From a virus, in IMG/VR virus record IMGVR_UViG_3300007735_000795, positions 1 to 64,000 of that record: 64,000 nt of DNA. One strand, given 5' to 3'. The position numbers and the translations under genes are program-made. Positions 5,492 through 31,866 of the stretch are shown piece by piece; position 1 is the stretch's first letter, and the number at the start of each line of letters is the position of its first letter. The notes below the pieces were generated by a model. That model worked only from the letters and a program-made list of their open reading frames with translations, was not told where the DNA came from and searched no databases.

Positions 5492-6532
5492 TCAAAAGTC
5501 TAACTTAACTCTAACTAAAGTTTCTTTAGTAAAATCTTTTTTAAGTGGTTTTGATAGTTTAGCTACTGCTAATAACTCATTGTTATCATTATACATTCCC
5601 ACAGATGTAATATATGTTTGAGGATTTTGTATAAATTGATCATATAATACTAAACCTGTACTACCAGAAATAAAACTTGGATTTTCAGTATAATTAAATT
5701 CTGCGTTTCGTGCTCTACAGAATACAAAATCTGAGGTTATTGTTTCTTGACTGTTAAGAGCAAAACTATTTCCATCATTTATTGTAACAAATAATTTTGC
5801 AGGAGCATTATCATCATTATTACTAGTAGGAGTATAGCCTAAAGCTATTCCTCCACTTACTGCAAATAAATTAAGAGCAGACTTATTAAGAATAATAGTA
5901 CCAATATCTGGTAGAAACAAACCATATGAACCTGAAACTGTCATTCCATTTGCCACAGCACCAGCTGGAGTAGAACCGGCTCCAATAGCTGAACCATTAC
6001 TACCTGAAACTATTTGGTATACTCTACCACAATCTAAAAATGAATCAACTGTAACATTATTACTATTGTCTGTTAGTTGAATAGTTGCTGCTCCTTTAGT
6101 TAAATTCAAATTTAAACTACCAGGAAATAAAGATTGTTTAAATCTTGCTCTTTCTATTGTAATAGCAAAAAAGTCTTGATAGACAGGAGTTACAGTACTA
6201 AAAGAAAAATCTGTATTTTCATCTCCATATATTAAATTTCTAAATTGACCAAACACAGTTCTAGTTGGTGATAATCCATTAATACCTGCTTGATACAATA
6301 AGGAACCAGATCCATATTTGTTACCATATGTTATATTAAACTGTATTTCTGCATTTGTATTAGAAGGATCTAATTGATAAACATTAAGATAATAATCTCC
6401 ACTAGGTGATCCTTCTTGAATAGAAGAAGTATAAAAATCAGTTAATGTTGTAACGTTATTAGTCCATGCTGGGGATGTTATTGAATCTGCACTAACTACA
6501 AAATCTTCTGGGTCTAGTCTTTTATAAGCCAT
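5492..6532 (-). CDS. virion/baseplate protein, paralog of the 3989-5488 C-terminus
   Basis: C-terminal YITSVGMYNDNNELLAVAKLSKP. Confidence 0.6.
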   Translation of the reverse strand: MAYKRLDPEDFVVSADSITSPAWTNNVTTLTDFYTSSIQEGSPSGDYYLNVYQLDPSNTNAEIQFNITYGNKYGSGSLLYQAGINGLSPTRTVFGQFRNLIYGDENTDFSFSTVTPVYQDFFAITIERARFKQSLFPGSLNLNLTKGAATIQLTDNSNNVTVDSFLDCGRVYQIVSGSNGSAIGAGSTPAGAVANGMTVSGSYGLFLPDIGTIILNKSALNLFAVSGGIALGYTPTSNNDDNAPAKLFVTINDGNSFALNSQETITSDFVFCRARNAEFNYTENPSFISGSTGLVLYDQFIQNPQTYITSVGMYNDNNELLAVAKLSKPLKKDFTKETLVRVKLDF

Positions 6533-23097: not shown

Positions 23098-23169
23098 TAG
23101 TCGGTACGGGAATCGAACCCGTGTTACCAGAATGAAAATCTGATGTCCTAACCCCTAGACGAACCGACC
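23098..23169 (-). tRNA. tRNA-Glu(TTC)
   Basis: Cloverleaf GGTCGGT/ACCGACT, anticodon loop TTTTCAT, T-loop GGTTCGATTCC; CCA not encoded. Confidence 0.92.
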
Positions 23170-23232: not shown

Positions 23233-23354
23233 TAGTCAAGGTAGGACTTGAACCTACACGCCTTTGAGGCTGGCAATCAATGTTTCCTCGAAACATGATT
23301 TGCGTCTACCGCGAATATCATCCCCAGGGCTAATATTCTTTTCGCCACTTGACT
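23233..23354 (-). ncRNA. tRNA-shell RNA copy 1 (Leu-like; hairpin inserted in the D-loop, extended anticodon stem)
   Basis: Acceptor AGTCAAG/CTTGACT+A, TGGCGAAA..GGTAGACGC, T-arm GTAGG-TTCAAGT-CCTAC. Confidence 0.7.
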
Positions 23355-23356
23355 AG

Positions 23357-23551
23357 TTAGTCTTTCAAATTATCATACTTACAACACGATAAATAATATT
23401 CTACTATCTGTTGTTTAGTAATACCAACACGTTTGTTAGTATTTTCCAAAATAACCACCCACAATTCGTTTATGTGAGTGGTATTTGGAATGATTTTTAA
23501 CTCTTTAGTTATTAATTGTGCTAATTCGTCTTTGCTATTAAGCTGCATATT
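23357..23551 (-). CDS. hypothetical protein ending just before tRNA-shell copy 1
   Basis: Likely start MQLNSKDEL overlapping the end of the DUF932 gene. Confidence 0.45.
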   Translation of the reverse strand, partial: NMQLNSKDELAQLITKELKIIPNTTHINELWVVILENTNKRVGITKQQIVEYYLSCCKYDNLKD

Positions 23552-24341
23552 CAACTGCAAGTTCATATAGCTTAGCATTCAAATCAAGGTCTTGTTTAAA
23601 GTTCTTAATTTTTCTTGCTTTACGCAACTTAGTGCCTGAGGTATATTCAAACATACCATGTACTAGTTTTTCTTGAACTACATTAAATACACTCCACAAG
23701 TCATTACCATTATCTTCAGGACGAGTTGGTGTAACCAATTCATTATAGTTAATAATAATATTTTGTAGTTGCTCAACACCAAAACGAATTTCAGCTGCTC
23801 TTCTAGCAAATTCAGTAATTTGTTCTTGACGAAGAGTTTTCTTTTTAAAACGATTCATTGATTCAACTGTCAATGGAAGTGACTGAACCATAGTATTAAT
23901 TACTCGTTGTAATTCTTCAAAACCATATCCGTAGTGACGAATCTTAAGATTTTCAAATTCCTTAGAACAAATCACAAGTCCATTTTCACAAACCAAACGG
24001 AACAAACCAGCAGTAAATGTAAATGCATTTTTACCATCATGGCTATTAGTTAGAAGAATCTGTGGGAACACATTATCACCATCTGTTCCTTCAATAAACA
24101 AATCATTGTTACGGAACACAACTAAGTGTTTTTGGTAACCATCACCTTTACGGGCACGTACTTCTTTTGCATCAACAACTCCCCAACCTAGTTTTTCCAT
24201 GTCCTGGACAATTTGTAGGGTTGAAATGTGAGCATACTTTTCACTAGTACCTGGAGCACCAGTAGTTGCAAAAATTGATTTTGCTTTTTCTTTAATTTCT
24301 GACTCTGTCAAAAATTTTGTTGTTTCTAAATTCAATGGCAT
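23538..24341 (-). CDS. DUF932/DUF945-family protein
   Basis: NSHDG..AGLFRLVCENGL, DLWSVFNVVQE. Confidence 0.8.
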   Translation of the reverse strand: MPLNLETTKFLTESEIKEKAKSIFATTGAPGTSEKYAHISTLQIVQDMEKLGWGVVDAKEVRARKGDGYQKHLVVFRNNDLFIEGTDGDNVFPQILLTNSHDGKNAFTFTAGLFRLVCENGLVICSKEFENLKIRHYGYGFEELQRVINTMVQSLPLTVESMNRFKKKTLRQEQITEFARRAAEIRFGVEQLQNIIINYNELVTPTRPEDNGNDLWSVFNVVQEKLVHGMFEYTSGTKLRKARKIKNFKQDLDLNAKLYELAVEYAA

Positions 24342-24404
24342 AACTTTTATTTTTTTATTTATAATTAAATATACGAAATTTCTCCTGTGAAGCCAAATTT
24401 CCTG

Positions 24405-24710
24405 TTAAAGAAATTTTATCAAGTAACACATTCTATTCAACATGTCATGTTTCTGCATTCTTAAATCAATGCGATACGGTTCATGGTTAAGTGTTTCTTC
24501 CATTTCTTGAATTTTAATAGCCATGTCCTTTAGTTTTTCCACTTCAGAACCTTCAATTTCACCTTCCATTTTCATGTTTGGAAGAACAACATTAAGTGGC
24601 CTTTCGATTCGTTTACGTCCTCGTTTTTTTCCTTCACCTACAGGAATGTTAATAATTGTTTGTTCTTTTTTACCCGTTCCAGGTGGGCGTCCTCTACGTT
24701 TTTGTTCCAT
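24405..24710 (-). CDS. AT-hook-like DNA-binding protein
   Basis: Likely start MEQKRRGRPPG; also KKRGRKR. Confidence 0.55.
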   Translation of the reverse strand: MEQKRRGRPPGTGKKEQTIINIPVGEGKKRGRKRIERPLNVVLPNMKMEGEIEGSEVEKLKDMAIKIQEMEETLNHEPYRIDLRMQKHDMLNRMCYLIKFL

Positions 24711-24992
24711 AACTTTTATTTGTTTTTTAATTATACAATAGCTGATGTGATAATCCAATAGATCAATACTTGAACAATGTATCCCCATTTTTGTTCCTTA
24801 AATGAAATACTTTCATTTTTCTTTTTGGCTTCAATTTGGATGTGAGACACAGCGCAATATCCAGTCCAAATATACGCTGCAATTGTAAGTGTTGTGTCCA
24901 TTTGCGTTTCTTATTTATACCTAAATATACGACAAATTTCCTGGGAAGCCAAATAAGAGGCGTGAACAGTGCGCTTTTCCTGTAAAATTACA

Positions 24993-25868
24993 TTAAATAG
25001 ACAATGGAACCATTTTCTTTCCCACTACAAATACTAAATTTTTAGTACTAACCAATATTTTTTTAGGGTTTTGATTAGCCGGGAATATGGCTTCCATCAT
25101 ATCATCAAACAATAGATTATTTAAATTCTTACTTTGGTTTACTAAATTGATAAAACTTTTACTGTTTCCACTGTAAGAATAAATTCCATAATCACCATTA
25201 GCCAAAGATATACCGTCTAAGTAAGCCTTTAATTTATCCATTTGTTCTGTAGGAATATTGCTTGCCAAAAATGCTGATACAGCTGGGTTACCCATTAGTT
25301 TTTTATTTGAAGCATCTTCCAAAGTTATAGGTGCATAAAAAGAACCATCCACCTCTATCCCAAAAAAGTCAGCTACTGGGTAAATTTTACTTAACCACAA
25401 GTTATATGATCCTTCATATAATATTTTATCTGAAAATAAGTTACCATAGTGAACAAATATCATGTAATACATGGTTGAACCTATTCCTTTTCCTCTATAT
25501 AATGTACTAACATAACTTAAAACTACTTGTGCTCCTTCTATTTTATAAGGTTTATCAGAAGACCTATCAATCAAATCCATTTCTACACTTCCAACAATGT
25601 ATTGTCTCCAAGTTGTAGCATCAGGTTTTACTAACCATTTTGTTCGTTCAGTGGTTTGATTTGCTTCTATTAGTCTATAACCTTCTGCTTCAATTAATTC
25701 AGTGTATTTTCCTTCTATTAAACTTTCATCAACCACATCATCTAAATCTTCTTCAGCAATGTCAAAGTCAATAGCAAAGTAGTTATACATTATGTCATCA
25801 TTTATAACACCACGTAATTGACCCTTACGTAGGTCTAGTTCTTTGAGCAGATCAGTTAGTTTTATCAT
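24993..25868 (-). CDS. late protein with a GNAT acetyltransferase-like motif and MIKLTDLLKE leader
   Basis: YVSTLYRGKGIGSTMY (acetyl-CoA motif A); late promoter upstream. Confidence 0.5.
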   Translation of the reverse strand: MIKLTDLLKELDLRKGQLRGVINDDIMYNYFAIDFDIAEEDLDDVVDESLIEGKYTELIEAEGYRLIEANQTTERTKWLVKPDATTWRQYIVGSVEMDLIDRSSDKPYKIEGAQVVLSYVSTLYRGKGIGSTMYYMIFVHYGNLFSDKILYEGSYNLWLSKIYPVADFFGIEVDGSFYAPITLEDASNKKLMGNPAVSAFLASNIPTEQMDKLKAYLDGISLANGDYGIYSYSGNSKSFINLVNQSKNLNNLLFDDMMEAIFPANQNPKKILVSTKNLVFVVGKKMVPLSI

Positions 25869-25949
25869 GGTAATAAATATTTTAAAAACAAGAAAAGGCC
25901 CCCATATGCAGTTCTTTCACCCACACATCTTAATACGTATATACGTATA

Positions 25950-26555
25950 TCAATATATAATAGGATTACCCACTTGAAATAACGCCCCTATTTCCCGTAC
26001 TTTATCAAAGGCAACTAATGGGTCAACTTCAAAGAACTCCCTTTCTTTTCCCAAATCAGAAAATACTCTTTTATCGGAAAAACATTTGTGTACCTGTTGT
26101 TCAACCCTAAACGCATTACCTTTAGAAACGGGTAGAGCAAATTTAGGAATCCATTCGGTGACAGTAGATGAAGCATTAAGCATCTTTACTCTGCCTTCAA
26201 CAGTACGTTCTGTCATCCCTATTTTAACCAAGTTTGGGTATCCTGGGTTAGTAAGTACATACACATATTCAATGTTGTCTTTGGTTTTGGACTGGATATC
26301 TATGTTTTGGATTCCATAAACAAACGCCCATTCGTTTTCACTAAGTGAAATTTCAATTAAATATTGTGCTCGGATGAAAGTTAAAAAACGGTCTGTTTGT
26401 ATGTGTCTAAACTTTGATCTTAGTGCAGAATAATTGGATTTCCAAGTTTGAAATTTAGAATCGGGGAGGACAGTATTGGAAGGATCCAATATTGTTATTT
26501 CGCCTATACTTTCCAAGTATAATGCTTCGTCAAGTGTAAGTTTGTCTCTATACAT
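25950..26555 (-). CDS. T5orf172/MUG113-type GIY-YIG nuclease domain protein
   Basis: YVYVLTN..LVKIGMT..R..EQQVH..REFF; likely start MYRDKL after the promoter at 26561. Confidence 0.75.
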   Translation of the reverse strand: MYRDKLTLDEALYLESIGEITILDPSNTVLPDSKFQTWKSNYSALRSKFRHIQTDRFLTFIRAQYLIEISLSENEWAFVYGIQNIDIQSKTKDNIEYVYVLTNPGYPNLVKIGMTERTVEGRVKMLNASSTVTEWIPKFALPVSKGNAFRVEQQVHKCFSDKRVFSDLGKEREFFEVDPLVAFDKVREIGALFQVGNPIIY

Positions 26556-26820
26556 ATATACAAATATACGTATATATGTGCTCGATGCCAAAGGATTTTT
26601 AAAAAGAGAGAGTTTGTGTTTTGCGATTTGTGCCCAAAATGGTTAATTCGAAATCGTATATACGTATATATGGGTCGGGCATAAAAGGTGTATGAGAGTT
26701 GAAGAGTGGTTCATTCCGCACCTTTACCAGGTGGCACACCATATGGACTACGGCGCGCATGGGAGGCACGTATATTATATATGTGTATATACGCACGCCG
26801 TACGCACGGACTTATACCGT

Positions 26821-28938
26821 CTAAAGTGCCGCTCTCCGACTATTATAGATTCTACAAACCTCGTCTACCTCGTCTGGTGTGAGCGAGTCTCCGATGCGCT
26901 CGAGTTCAACACATGTTTCATCATCACACTGACCGTAAGTATCGATCATGCGGTTTGCTCTGTCTTGCAGGTCAATAAATTTTTGGATTTTAGCTGACAT
27001 ATTATTATTTATGTTTTTAATTATGGTTGAATATACGGATGGTCTCTTACGAGGCCAAACATTATTATAGATGCTTTTATGCTTACAGTACAATCGATAT
27101 TACCTTGAGTACTAGGCACATTGAGAAAAAAACAATAGACAATACCAAAAGGTAGTCGAAGAATGATGGTTTTAATTTCGGATACATAGTTTTATATTTT
27201 ATATTCTTTATCAAAATGAACTACTATTGCAGCTGCAATCAAGGTAACGTTTATAAAAACAAATAAACCTGTAATTAAAGACACACCTGTTATAAACATA
27301 GACATTAATGTTCCGATTACTGAAATGAAATAAACAAGTGCAATTGAAATTTGAAGTGATGTTTTGTTTGACATAATATTTTGTTTTAATTATTTGATTG
27401 AATATACGAATGGCCTTTTATAAGGCCAAATCTAGTTGTGAACAATATGTACTGTTTTTTTTTATTACGGTTGGATCAATCGTAATGCTTTAATTTGTTC
27501 TTGAGCGTACGCATCTATTTTCTCAGCATCGGCTTTAATTTCATCACTGGCCCAATTCAAAACACAGGTCTCGTGATGTGAGCGACTATAATCAATTGCA
27601 TCATCATAGTGATCACACTCGGGCTTAGAGAAGGTAACATAGGATCCGTCATTATCATCTGACATCTGGTAACCTAATGATTCAGCATACTGATAAACTG
27701 CTTTGTTGATCGCGTTTTTAATTTCTTTCTTTGTCATGTTATTTATGTTTTTAATTATGGCTAAATATACGGTCAAAGTTTTGCTATTCCAAATGTCTCG
27801 ACCATCATTTCGACCAGTTCCTCTTTGGCGGTGTATGTGTCTAGCCACTTGAAGCCTCCAATGTGCCACTCGATCATCTCGTTACGGTCTAATTTCCGGT
27901 ATTCCTTCCAGTCGTAAATGGTGACTACGGCTCCATCCTTGGTCTCACATACCCACTCCATCTGACACTTCTCATCACCTGATACTCCGTGTTGAGGGGC
28001 TCCCAATACGGTCTCGAGTTGGTGTTGAGTGCAGGTGATTGTTGTTTTGTGGAATGATGTTCCGTAAGTGTTTTTGTCTGATTTTTTCATGTTTGTGTTT
28101 TTTAATTTGATTAAATATACGACCAAATCCTTGGGGAGACAAACAAAGAGGCACCTAAGTGCCCCAATGTTCATAATTAAAAACAAAACACACTATATAT
28201 TTTTTAACACAGATAACATTTCATCTTTGATCATACTGTCATCATCTGTGTCTATAACGTTCTCTATATTATTGTTTATTTCATCGTAGATGCTTTTTTC
28301 ATCAAAACTCAACTCAAGTTCTTTATCATTCAACTCAATTTCAGTGTAGTAATCAAAATCGGCACCTGAATTTTTTACTGCTTCCATGGCTGCATCTTTA
28401 GCCCTACCTACAATCATCCTAGTATACTCAATCAACTCACCTTCAGTGAAGGTATAGATACCGTCTTTGAAATTGTCATCGTTTTGGGATTTGAATTCTG
28501 CGGGAGAGGTTATTAGTTGTCTGATCATCTGATCCCTCATTCCGACCTTATTGATTATATACTCCATCATTTCACCGTCTAATTCTGTTTCGTTTAATAC
28601 GGCAATTACTACGTTTGCAATGTTTTGATTTGTCATGTTTTTATTTTTTAATTATTATAGGTTAAATATACGATCAAAATTTTATTAGGCCAAACTTGTT
28701 TTTAATTAAGGTAAAACTGATTTTCTTTAATAAATTCGTTTACCTGTTCTAGGGCAACGGATGCTACCTTCTTAATTGCTTTATACTGACGCATTTCGAC
28801 TTTATAGTTATCATAATCAAATTGATTATAACAACCGTCCATTTCCATTCTTACTATTTCAATTTGCTCGGTAACAGTGTTCAATAGACACTCATTCATT
28901 TCTTTTGTGGCTTGTGCTTTGCATAAAACGTAACTCAT
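26821..28938 (-). CDS. cluster of six small early hypothetical genes, most with their own promoter (26821-27000, 27192-27374, 27465-27737, 27773-28090, 28193-28636, 28702-28938)
   Basis: ORF track, with starts re-called to the ATG just downstream of each promoter. Confidence 0.6.
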
Positions 28939-29073
28939 AATAATGTGTTTTTAATTATTTGAGTTGAATATACAATAAAAACTTCACATAACCAAATTTA
29001 GTTGTGAACAAAAGAGAAGCGGCGCCCGTTGGCACCGCTACCCCTAAAAACACATGGCACTTAAAGACCTTTC

Positions 29074-29289
29074 TTAGAAGGTCAACTGACGCTCAGAATT
29101 CTTCTGACGTCTACGAGAAATACTGTACATTGCATTTGCAACCGGCTGATTGATCGAGCGGTTACCGTTGACAATGTTAGAAATGTGACTGGTAGAATAA
29201 CCTGTCATGTCTGCGATACGGTTAGTATCACCTTCACGCTTACGAGCGGAATAGAAAGCCAATTTGGCTGTTGAATTTAAACGACGCAT
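29074..29289 (-). CDS. XRE/Cro-like helix-turn-helix protein
   Basis: RIADMTGYSTSHISNIVNGNR. Confidence 0.7.
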   Translation of the reverse strand: MRRLNSTAKLAFYSARKREGDTNRIADMTGYSTSHISNIVNGNRSINQPVANAMYSISRRRQKNSERQLTF

Positions 29290-29379
29290 AATTATTAATT
29301 TAATTTAACTTATTAATTTATACCTGTAATATAATAGGCCTCTATAAGAAGCCTAGTTATTTTTAAATTTTCTTTTTAG

Positions 29380-29488
29380 TAGTCAGGACAGGATTCGAAC
29401 CTGTAAAATCTTTTATTTGGTTTAGGGTAGTTACTATTCCTATCTCCTTCCAAAACATATAGCGTCTAACCAATTCCGCCACCTGACT
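29380..29488 (-). ncRNA. tRNA-shell RNA copy 2 (no canonical anticodon arm)
   Basis: AGTCAGG-TGGCGGAATTGGTTAGACGC-[~57 nt irregular hairpin]-ACAGGTTCGAATCCTGT-CCTGACT-A. Confidence 0.75.
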
Positions 29489-29627
29489 ATGTTTTATGTT
29501 TAATGTATTTTCTTATACCTAAACATTTAATAACATGGAGTTCTACCTTAAACCATCTCTTGAATTTCACCCACCATGTGTCTTTCTCCATTTTATCTAA
29601 TATCCTTTGAAATGTTTTACTTCTCAT
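29487..29627 (-). CDS. 46 aa basic/aromatic peptide between two tRNA-shell repeats
   Basis: MRSKTFQRILDKMEKDTWWVKFKRWFKVELHVIKCLGIRKYIKHKT*; A-rich leader; TAG overlaps the 5' end of copy 2. Confidence 0.55.
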   Translation of the reverse strand: MRSKTFQRILDKMEKDTWWVKFKRWFKVELHVIKCLGIRKYIKHKT

Positions 29628-29642
29628 TACTTTTATTTTTAG

Positions 29643-29729
29643 TAGTCAGGACAGGATTCGAACCTGTATCGTTGAATTACCCAGCTTCAACTGCTTAAGT
29701 ATAGCGTATACCAATTCCGCCACCTGACT
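29643..29729 (-). ncRNA. tRNA-shell RNA copy 3 (no canonical anticodon stem)
   Basis: AGTCAGG-TGGCGGAATTGGTATACGC-[~36 nt, GTTGAA/TTCAAC hairpin]-ACAGGTTCGAATCCTGT-CCTGACT-A. Confidence 0.75.
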
Positions 29730-29735
29730 ATGTTT

Positions 29736-29943
29736 CCCCACCTTGAGATTACTGGTGAGTAGATGTATCGGTTTTCTTTCTTTCAATAAACCTGCGGGTC
29801 TTACCCTCTTAAAATTAGTCAAACTACTTGGAGCCTCTGTTACCTAGCTTTATCCCAAAGAGACTGGCGTTTAAGGATGTCCAGTCCAATACCCTATTCA
29901 TTGTTTAAGTCTTGAATTAAAGACTCTGAGTATCTCTTACTCA
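29736..29943 (-). ncRNA. structured ncRNA candidate (~208 nt)
   Basis: Hairpins TGAGTA/TACTCA, GAGTCTT/AAGACTT, GACTGG/CCAGTC, GGGT/ACCC, GGTTT/AAACC, AGTAG/CTACT, CTCACC/GGTGGG; no ORF; bounded by tRNA-type elements. Confidence 0.7.
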
Positions 29944-29946
29944 TAG

Positions 29947-30032
29947 TACCCGGGGAGGGACTCGAACCGGCATTGCTGTTTTTAGCAGCAGCATTTTAAG
30001 TGCTGCACGTATACCTATTTCAGCACCCGGGC
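29947..30032 (-). tRNA. tRNA-Leu(TAA), with mismatches in the D- and T-stems
   Basis: GCCCGGG/CCCGGGT acceptor, CAGCA-CTTAAAA-TGCTG anticodon arm, long variable arm, GCCGG-TTCGAGT-CCCTC T-arm. Confidence 0.75.
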
Positions 30033-30076: not shown

Positions 30077-30283
30077 TTAGGCCGCAGCCGGTGCTTCAGA
30101 CGGTGACTCGACCTTTTTAGTGGCCGGACGTCCACGTTTTACTACACCGCCGTTTGCAGCGGCACGCATTGCTCTAGCCGCTAAACGGGCTTGACGAGCT
30201 GAATTTTCTACTACTGGTCTGCCTTTGCGACCTGCTACTTTTACTTCTACTGCCGGTGCAGTTGTTTTTACTTTTTTACTCAT
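30077..30283 (-). CDS. small basic AT-hook/histone-like protein
   Basis: RKGRP and KRGRP motifs; Ala/Lys/Arg-rich. Confidence 0.65.
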   Translation of the reverse strand: MSKKVKTTAPAVEVKVAGRKGRPVVENSARQARLAARAMRAAANGGVVKRGRPATKKVESPSEAPAAA

Positions 30284-31776: not shown

Positions 31777-31866
31777 GTGTGTTAAATATTTGAAGTGAAT
31801 ATACGACCAGTTTTCTGGAAAGCCAAATAAGAGGTGTGAACACTTGCATTTTCTTACTTTCATTAA

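Follow-up and report, generated by a model that had tools for sequence, protein, structure and literature searches.

The closest described counterpart of the RNAs reported here is RNA1 of phage T5 (AY543070 30501-30644), which is annotated as a 'tRNA-like stable RNA with unknown functions' and sits within the tRNA cluster of that phage. T5 RNA1 has both an acceptor stem and a T arm, together with a Leu-type D arm (GCCGGAAUUGGUAGACGG), and ~80 inserted nucleotides (nt) take the place of the anticodon and variable arms. Phage T4 encodes the species 1 and species 2 RNAs (rnaC and rnaD; NC_000866 70908-71171), small stable RNAs at the end of its tRNA cluster, of which rnaC resembles a tRNA in its T arm and 3' end. 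Here we describe three elements of comparable design in positions 1 to 64,000 of IMG/VR virus record IMGVR_UViG_3300007735_000795 (hereafter the window, to which all coordinates refer). The source is an uncultured, Bacteroidota-type myovirus of ~160 kb, of which 98.8 kb (61%) was analysed. In each element a constant tRNA-like shell, made up of acceptor stem, D arm and T arm, surrounds a variable middle, termed the cargo. The three elements belong to a large, apparently undescribed family of phage RNAs that are tRNA-shaped, non-decoding and fitted with exchangeable cargo.

T5 RNA1 scored 31.4 bits with a covariance model of the shell and 24 bits with the Rfam tRNA model, and the T arm of T5 RNA2 (CAGGUUCGAAUCCUG) is that of two of the three elements (copies 2 and 3). 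The T5 RNAs differ from the shells in acceptor sequence and in cargo, with no cargo homology, and are single instances in a coliphage. In T4 rnaC only the 3' 92 nt matched the shell model (25.6 bits), and a Leu-type D arm was not evident where one would be expected. The likeness to T5 names a kind of RNA and not a mechanism.

The class II tRNA-Leu (RF00005) of related phages has the same acceptor, D and T arms, core, A73 and -1/+74 context as the shells, but the shells lack the 5-bp stem and 7-nt loop of an anticodon arm, range from 69 to 196 nt and cannot decode. For tmRNA, YrlA and the laboratory tRNA scaffold the likeness is one of analogy and not of relatedness. The tmRNA also joins an acceptor/T domain to a large functional insert and receives its amino acid from a synthetase whose recognition does not involve the anticodon. 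It differs in its Ala identity (G3.U70), reduced D arm, pseudoknots and tag open reading frame (ORF), whereas the shells have U-A at 3:70, a complete D arm and no tag ORF; no tmRNA was detected in the window by ARAGORN or Rfam. YrlA and other bacterial Y RNAs (RF02553) fuse a tRNA-like elbow to another functional helix. In YrlA, however, it is the Ro-binding stem that contains the ends of the RNA, and the acceptor-like end is closed, a topology opposite to that of the shells, on which Rfam gave no YrlA match. Finally, Ponchon and Dardel reportedly engineered a 'tRNA scaffold' in 2007 by swapping the anticodon arm for an arbitrary RNA, which the cell processes and stabilises. The design is the same, but the engineered scaffold is man-made and based on tRNA-Lys/Met, while the shells are natural and Leu-type, offer two insertion slots and occur in hundreds of phages.

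The positions of the three elements, 23233-23354 (copy 1, 122 nt), 29380-29488 (copy 2, 109 nt) and 29643-29729 (copy 3, 87 nt), are exactly those given in an initial annotation made from the sequence alone, and all three are on the minus strand. In each, the 5' strand of a perfect 7-bp acceptor stem leads into U8 and then a D arm of class II Leu type (GCGRAA..GGUAGACGC); the element ends with a perfect 5-bp T stem closing a UUCGAAU or UUCAAGU loop, the 3' strand of the acceptor and a discriminator A. The acceptor stem is AGUCAAG/CUUGACU in copy 1 and AGUCAGG/CCUGACU in copies 2 and 3, and the T stem is GUAGG/CCUAC in copy 1 and ACAGG/CCUGU in copies 2 and 3. These stems, the discriminator, the D arm and the compensatory differences between copies agree with the initial description. 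The complete T arm of copy 1 reads GUAGG-UUCAAGU-CCUAC, followed by A73, and every copy has U at -1 and C at +74. The shells of copies 2 and 3 are identical except in the D loop, and also have 6 nt upstream and ~11 nt downstream in common. The Rfam tRNA model (RF00005, gathering score 29 bits) spanned each copy end to end (model positions 1-71) above 29 bits, scoring 30.4, 36.8 and 40.9 bits for copies 1, 2 and 3. Left unaligned were 16, 44 and 31 nt in the anticodon region of copies 1, 2 and 3, respectively, and 33 nt in the D loop of copy 1. The shell covariance model R1, built from 40 shells, scored the same copies at 58, 83.7 and 82.7 bits.

The middles, by contrast with the shells, were unrelated to one another when compared, as had been noted. 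The main cargo of copy 1 (23258-23301) contains an 11-bp bulged stem with GAG at its apex, followed by a short variable-arm-like hairpin, and a further hairpin of ~30 nt is inserted in the D loop between A15 and G18G19 (23311-23340), forming a second cargo slot; both the GAG-apex stem and the D-loop hairpin of the initial annotation were thereby recovered. Copy 2 carries 57 purine-rich nt (29405-29461). The cargo of copy 3 (29668-29703) consists of a 12-nt segment, UAUACUUAAGCA, and a 6-bp hairpin (GUUGAA/UUCAAC) with the 9-nt loop GCUGGGUAA. A hairpin had been claimed for every centre, and the claim held for copy 1 (minimum free energy z = -3.8) and for the 6-bp stem of copy 3, but less well for copy 2, where the hairpin was weaker (z = -1.65).

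A simple explanation for such elements would be that they decode as tRNAs, with an intron or an atypical anticodon arm, copy 1 being a Leu(GAG) with an extended stem and copy 3 a Leu(AAG/UAA). Calls of pseudo or undetermined tRNA had been expected; ARAGORN missed copies 1 and 2 and, contrary to that expectation, detected copy 3 and labelled it tRNA-Leu(AAG). The label is an artefact, as the anticodon stem has to be built from three of five pairs, with C at position 37, and this stem is not kept in the related locus L035. At the hairpin tip of copy 1, UCGAGGA could be taken for a GAG 'anticodon' having G37, but C occupies position 33, and a helix of 9-11 bp in place of 5 cannot be reconciled with decoding geometry. 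No canonical anticodon arm (5-bp stem, 7-nt loop, U33, purine at 37) was found in copies 1-3, with three of five pairs as the maximum; under the same test, 12 of 65 model matches, real tRNAs of related loci, were canonical (4-5 of 5 pairs, U33, purine 37). Every single contiguous central deletion was also tried for each copy, and none produced N26 with a 5-bp/7-nt arm, U33/R37 and a legal variable region. As no single excision restores a legal anticodon arm, and as bacteria are not known to splice out inserts of 30-60 nt, we consider decoding highly improbable.

Equally improbable, and already contradicted by the data, is the view that the elements are tRNA-Leu pseudogenes decaying after duplication. 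Unrelated middles, and a copy 2 cargo that is an orphan, would suit it, but the stems are perfect in all three copies, compensatory changes occur throughout the family, and random decay would not spare the shell alone. Real decay is in fact visible next door. The tRNA-Leu(UAA) at 29947-30032 (minus strand), the sole Leu decoder in the window, has good anticodon and variable arms, but its T stem has two mismatches (GCCGG/CCCUC) and its D stem is weakened or defective. It scored 29.4 bits with Rfam, as opposed to ~60 bits for intact Leu(UAA) genes of relatives. In this phage, therefore, the decoder tRNA-Leu(UAA) looks like it is eroding while the non-decoding shells remain perfect. The initial proposal of selection on a non-decoding tRNA shape was borne out by these perfect stems beside a decaying tRNA-Leu, by the failure of any excision to yield an anticodon arm and by the covariation described below. 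Judged by their sequences, the three elements are non-decoding RNAs and not decaying tRNA copies.

At least 120 IMG/VR contigs contained an exact match to the 25-nt 3' half common to copies 2 and 3, and a single locus had as many as five copies. Nearly all of these contigs carry the matching 5' half and a different middle, for a total length of 54-182 nt. The exact 3' half of copy 1 gave no match in IMG/VR, its shell variant being rarer. A structural pattern run over every fetched locus gathered 221 distinct shells of 69-196 nt, with ~75-83 cargo classes at 60% similarity. The covariance model and the count of copies and inserts in relatives that the initial annotation had suggested thus revealed a family with stems maintained, not randomly decayed. 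Among 185,579 bacterial and archaeal species genomes, the 25-mer occurred in only 14 contigs, all of them from metagenome bins (five Bacteroidota/Chitinophagaceae), so the 25-nt half is not that of a cellular or host tRNA. Among cultured phages, megablast with the 9-kb region returned no match, and when copy 3 was compared by blastn with 50,697 phage records, only half-matches appeared, all to ordinary tRNA-Gln and tRNA-Leu genes in phages of Enterococcus and Vibrio. The closest cultured relative by baseplate protein, Flavobacterium phage immuto (44.6% identity), did not contain shells. Microcystis phage Mel-JY01, another cultured relative by that protein, yielded no more than a normal tRNA-Leu. 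Full-text literature searches found no description of this tRNA-shell RNA family.

Covariation was measured in a set assembled independently of the shells, namely 80 loci retrieved through the DUF932 protein encoded directly upstream of copy 1. R1 was run on these loci, and the 65 best matches were retained (51 distinct, ~12 of these real tRNAs; 42 distinct shells alone). Standard pairs filled 99.3% of the pair cells, and double-sided changes were seen in 13 of 15 shell pairs. None of 500 shuffles reached the observed pairing and covariation values, and sliding the partners by 1-3 columns lowered pairing to 33-40%. Among the 42 distinct shells, three or four pair types each were present at acceptor positions 1:72, 2:71 and 6:67 and at T-stem positions 49:65 and 50:64. 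U8, U54, U55, C56 and A58 were invariant, A73 was present in 38 of 42 shells and U48 in 39, and position 3:70 was U-A in all 42. The covariation in the acceptor and T stems shows selection on the transcript and not on DNA alone; with the acceptor, D arm, T arm and tertiary-core nucleotides all kept and covarying, the comparison indicates that the shell is under selection at the RNA level.

Cargo behaved differently from the shell: comparison across loci shows that it is unrelated among the three copies, yet conserved within cargo classes across phages. The cargo of copy 3 recurred in 21 contigs, within shells that differed in T stem (five variants) and in T loop (several) and that in two contigs also had a hairpin in the D loop. 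As 20 positions of this cargo were specified in the search pattern, invariance at those positions is partly by construction. In L035 the hairpin stem was wholly replaced with compensation, from GUUGAA/UUCAAC to GAGCAA/UUGCUC. Copy 1 had one true ortholog, in contig L123, whose DUF932 protein is 99% identical, and the two RNAs differ at eight positions. Three of the differences fall in the long cargo stem with pairing kept (G-C to A-U, U-A to U.G), and one falls in the T stem, where A-U becomes the still paired G.U. The remaining four lie outside firm helices, two of them in the ambiguous variable-arm region. In relatives with DUF932 proteins 78-86% identical, the site downstream of the DUF932 gene was occupied by at least four other cargos, and even between the window and L123 the downstream tRNA differs (Glu and Arg, respectively). 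The same cargo in different shells, and different cargo at the same site, fit the initial suggestion of a scaffold with a variable insert.

D-loop hairpins of other sequence were found in syntenic shells and elsewhere (L139, L124, L132, L146, L164, L237), and the slot was occupied in ~39 of the 221 shells. The recurrence of unrelated D-loop hairpins across the shells of relatives identifies the D loop as a second insertion slot.

Neither guides nor known RNAs were recognised among the cargos. Guide-like complementarity, which had been raised for the inserts, was not borne out, since blastn-short of the cargos against the phage's own 98.8 kb yielded only low-complexity 14-mers, none beyond chance. 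Rfam searches at permissive thresholds of the window region and 11 shell-rich loci gave only tRNA, tmRNA or chance matches, and no cargo was covered.

A separate cargo module, AUGGUUAUAGCA ... GGGUAAAAAA ... hairpin ... GGUCACUAUAAUGGCAGCCC, was widespread among related loci (L125, L124, L129, L132, L146 and L107, in each at the site syntenic with copy 1). Its UUAUAG/CUAUAA sequences covary to UUAUAA/UUAUAA, and its inner hairpin is swapped between phages. This covariation suggests a long-range helix or pseudoknot within the module.

The ends of the elements carry signals of tRNA processing. U at -1, which is favoured by bacterial RNase P, preceded 173 of 221 shells (78%) against a background of 32%. 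C at +74 followed 215 of 221 shells (97%), and at these loci it also followed every canonical Leu-type tRNA (58 of 58); the signature of the 3' gene end is therefore equal to that of the neighbouring Leu-type tRNAs. The full CCA was encoded in only 8 of 221 shells. The proposal that the elements serve as RNase P/Z processing signals fits these features and the position of the elements, which abut a conserved RNA and a mini-gene.

The elements that are critical for bacterial leucyl-tRNA synthetase (LeuRS) are A73 and the pairs U8-A14, A15-U48, G18-U55 and G19-C56, as established by mutagenesis (PMC2377443), and removal of the entire anticodon stem-loop costs only a 2.5-fold loss of LeuRS affinity (PMC2377443). 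All of the LeuRS-critical nucleotides were present in copies 1-3 and were nearly invariant in the family. Because the shells keep these parts and the anticodon arm is dispensable, leucylation of copies 1-3 by bacterial LeuRS is plausible.

We consider it somewhat better than an even chance that the elements are natural class II tRNA-Leu scaffolds, which would undergo tRNA-type processing, display cargo that can be exchanged and act as punctuation in the transcript. According to this model, the shell elements would be co-transcribed with the adjacent tRNAs, and the chassis would fold into the L-shape of a tRNA. RNase P would cleave the 5' end, where U occupies -1, and the 3' end would be trimmed and completed to CCA as in the real tRNAs of the phage, to give a nuclease-resistant RNA with defined ends. 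The same cleavage would free a flanking 217-nt RNA and the mRNA of a 46-amino acid (aa) mini-gene, and LeuRS would probably leucylate the RNAs as well. The lineage-specific function would reside in the displayed cargo, acting as a protein- or RNA-binding module, and the cargo would be traded among phages like a cassette.

Several results weigh against this model. The copy 2 cargo had no homolog in any fetched locus, nor in IMG/VR by exact pattern. Cargo folding exceeded that of random segments of the same loci only modestly (mean z of -0.65 and -0.19, respectively; p = 0.003), and no 5-mer stood out as a motif common to the cargo classes (maximum z of 4.7). When the 1,023 ORFs lying no more than 3 kb from a shell at 120 loci were clustered, no common partner protein emerged, the best candidates being DUF932 (11 loci) and T5orf172 (7 loci). 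A minority of the family has non-Leu D arms, so that leucylation would not be universal. Neither a CCA-adding enzyme nor Rnl1 is encoded in the 61% of the genome examined; with respect to the former, host enzymes must be assumed.

The scaffold model is most directly rivalled by pure punctuation, in which the shells would be RNase P/Z cleavage signals that split a polycistron into the 217-nt RNA, mini-gene mRNAs and tRNAs, and the cargo would be neutral filler. That the shells exactly abut the 217-nt RNA and the 46-aa gene, that the -1 and +74 signals are present, and that the copy 2 cargo is an orphan and the cargo folding signal weak would all be expected on this account. RNase P would need no more than a minihelix, however, whereas the shells retain a full D arm and the tertiary core. 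Filler would also not explain why the copy 3 cargo stays near-unchanged in 21 contigs while the shell varies, with covariation in its stem, or why the copy 1 cargo stem shows compensatory change, and we regard pure punctuation as unlikely. The shells might instead act as decoys or sponges that, charged or uncharged, absorb defences or toxins reading the acceptor end or elbow, or titrate LeuRS or EF-Tu. Precisely the LeuRS-relevant parts are retained, several copies occur per genome, and cassette-like turnover is typical of counter-defence loci. Against this, a decoy for an acceptor-end toxin needs no conserved, class-specific cargo, and no defence system was linked to shell RNAs. The variant advanced in the initial annotation, a decoy for anticodon nucleases, fared poorly, because anticodon-loop-like hairpins were not enriched in the cargos (4 of 75 classes, 3.2 expected). 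A decoy or sponge role is in our view decidedly unlikely.

The elements might also be selfish recombination cassettes, the constant halves of the shell being mainly homology arms or homing-endonuclease targets that spread whatever lies between. Such cassettes would account for the acceptor, T-arm and D-stem sequences and the 6-nt and ~11-nt flanks common to copies 2 and 3, for the exact 25-nt half in at least 120 contigs, for T5orf172/GIY-YIG-like genes nearby (25950-26591; 7 of 120 loci) and for the different downstream tRNAs of the window and L123. Most loci, however, are without endonuclease genes, and covariation in the acceptor and T stems bespeaks selection on RNA, so that we hold this explanation to be quite improbable. 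The scaffold model may also be extended. Large aquatic phages could maintain a combinatorial RNA-effector library on an aminoacylatable tRNA-Leu chassis, hijacking host tRNA processing, CCA addition and LeuRS; the cargo modules, in two slots on the anticodon side and in the D loop, would be traded as cassettes and, as aptamer-like binders or mimics, would neutralise defence or regulatory proteins of the host. We offer this extension tentatively and think it rather unlikely; if true, the library would be an RNA counterpart of the protein anti-defence islands.

If the RNAs are made and processed as the scaffold model predicts, phages invented the 'tRNA scaffold' long before biotechnology, and would express dozens of different small structured RNAs on a large scale. 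The family would then add a large class of phage non-coding RNA to a protein-dominated field and give a handle on what the 'stable RNAs of unknown function' of T4 and T5 do, a 50-year-old puzzle. It would also supply naturally optimised scaffolds and cargo modules, ready-made. The tRNA annotation of phage genomes would likewise be corrected, as ARAGORN and Rfam call shells tRNAs, one of those in the window being labelled tRNA-Leu(AAG).

At the site of copies 2 and 3, the order on the minus strand is a 68-aa gene, the tRNA-Leu(UAA), a 217-nt spacer, copy 3, the 46-aa gene, copy 2 and a terminator-like hairpin. The 68-aa protein (30077-30283, minus strand), encoded just upstream of tRNA-Leu(UAA), is rich in Ala, Arg and Lys, has GRP (AT-hook-like) motifs and had no PHROG match. 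The spacer (29730-29946, minus strand) takes up precisely the whole interval from tRNA-Leu(UAA) to copy 3 and is a conserved structured RNA. Over its whole length it was 72-78% identical to sequences beside shells in L100, L041 and L009, with partial matches (75-89%) in L045, L015, L244, L010 and L062; compensatory changes were found in 8 of 19 predicted pairs, and Rfam gave no match. The 46-aa mini-gene (29487-29627, minus strand), known from its translation, lies between copies 3 and 2 and was conserved at the protein level in L035 and L033. Its product is basic and Trp-rich, and its leader is A-rich without a Shine-Dalgarno sequence. The UAG stop codon overlaps A1-G2 of copy 2, and RNase P cleavage at that point would therefore remove it. 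The terminator-like hairpin (29335-29355, minus strand) is 25 nt downstream of copy 2 and likely marks the end of the transcript of the RNA cluster.

Copy 1 is followed, 63 nt downstream, by a canonical tRNA-Glu(UUC) at 23098-23169 (minus strand), detected by ARAGORN and scoring 61 bits with Rfam. Directly upstream of this shell/tRNA cluster, here as in relatives of the phage, is the DUF932 gene (23538-24341, minus strand). DUF932 was found in 109 IMG/VR contigs, and of 120 loci anchored on shells, 11 had it close to a shell. The protein had no sequence match in the PDB, and its AlphaFold model (pLDDT 73.6) gave nothing at E <= 0.001 in a Foldseek search of the PDB. Between the two shell sites lies the gene for the T5orf172/MUG113 (GIY-YIG-like) domain protein (25950-26591, minus strand), which might contribute to the turnover of cassettes as a homing endonuclease; the domain was found near shells in 7 of 120 loci.

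Two further observations concern the surroundings of the RNAs. The related phage L176 carries a full tmRNA gene (5932-6330; Rfam 83.4 bits) that ends an array of ~25 tRNAs downstream of its DUF932 gene. In the window, the promoter-like sequence TTGGCY-N17-TATATT, usually with CG before TATATT, occurred at 20 sites where 1.7 were expected. Nearly all of these sites are on the minus strand ahead of genes (for example, 24368-24396, 27030-27058, 28665-28693 and 31798-31826), and they probably represent a promoter class of the phage's own.

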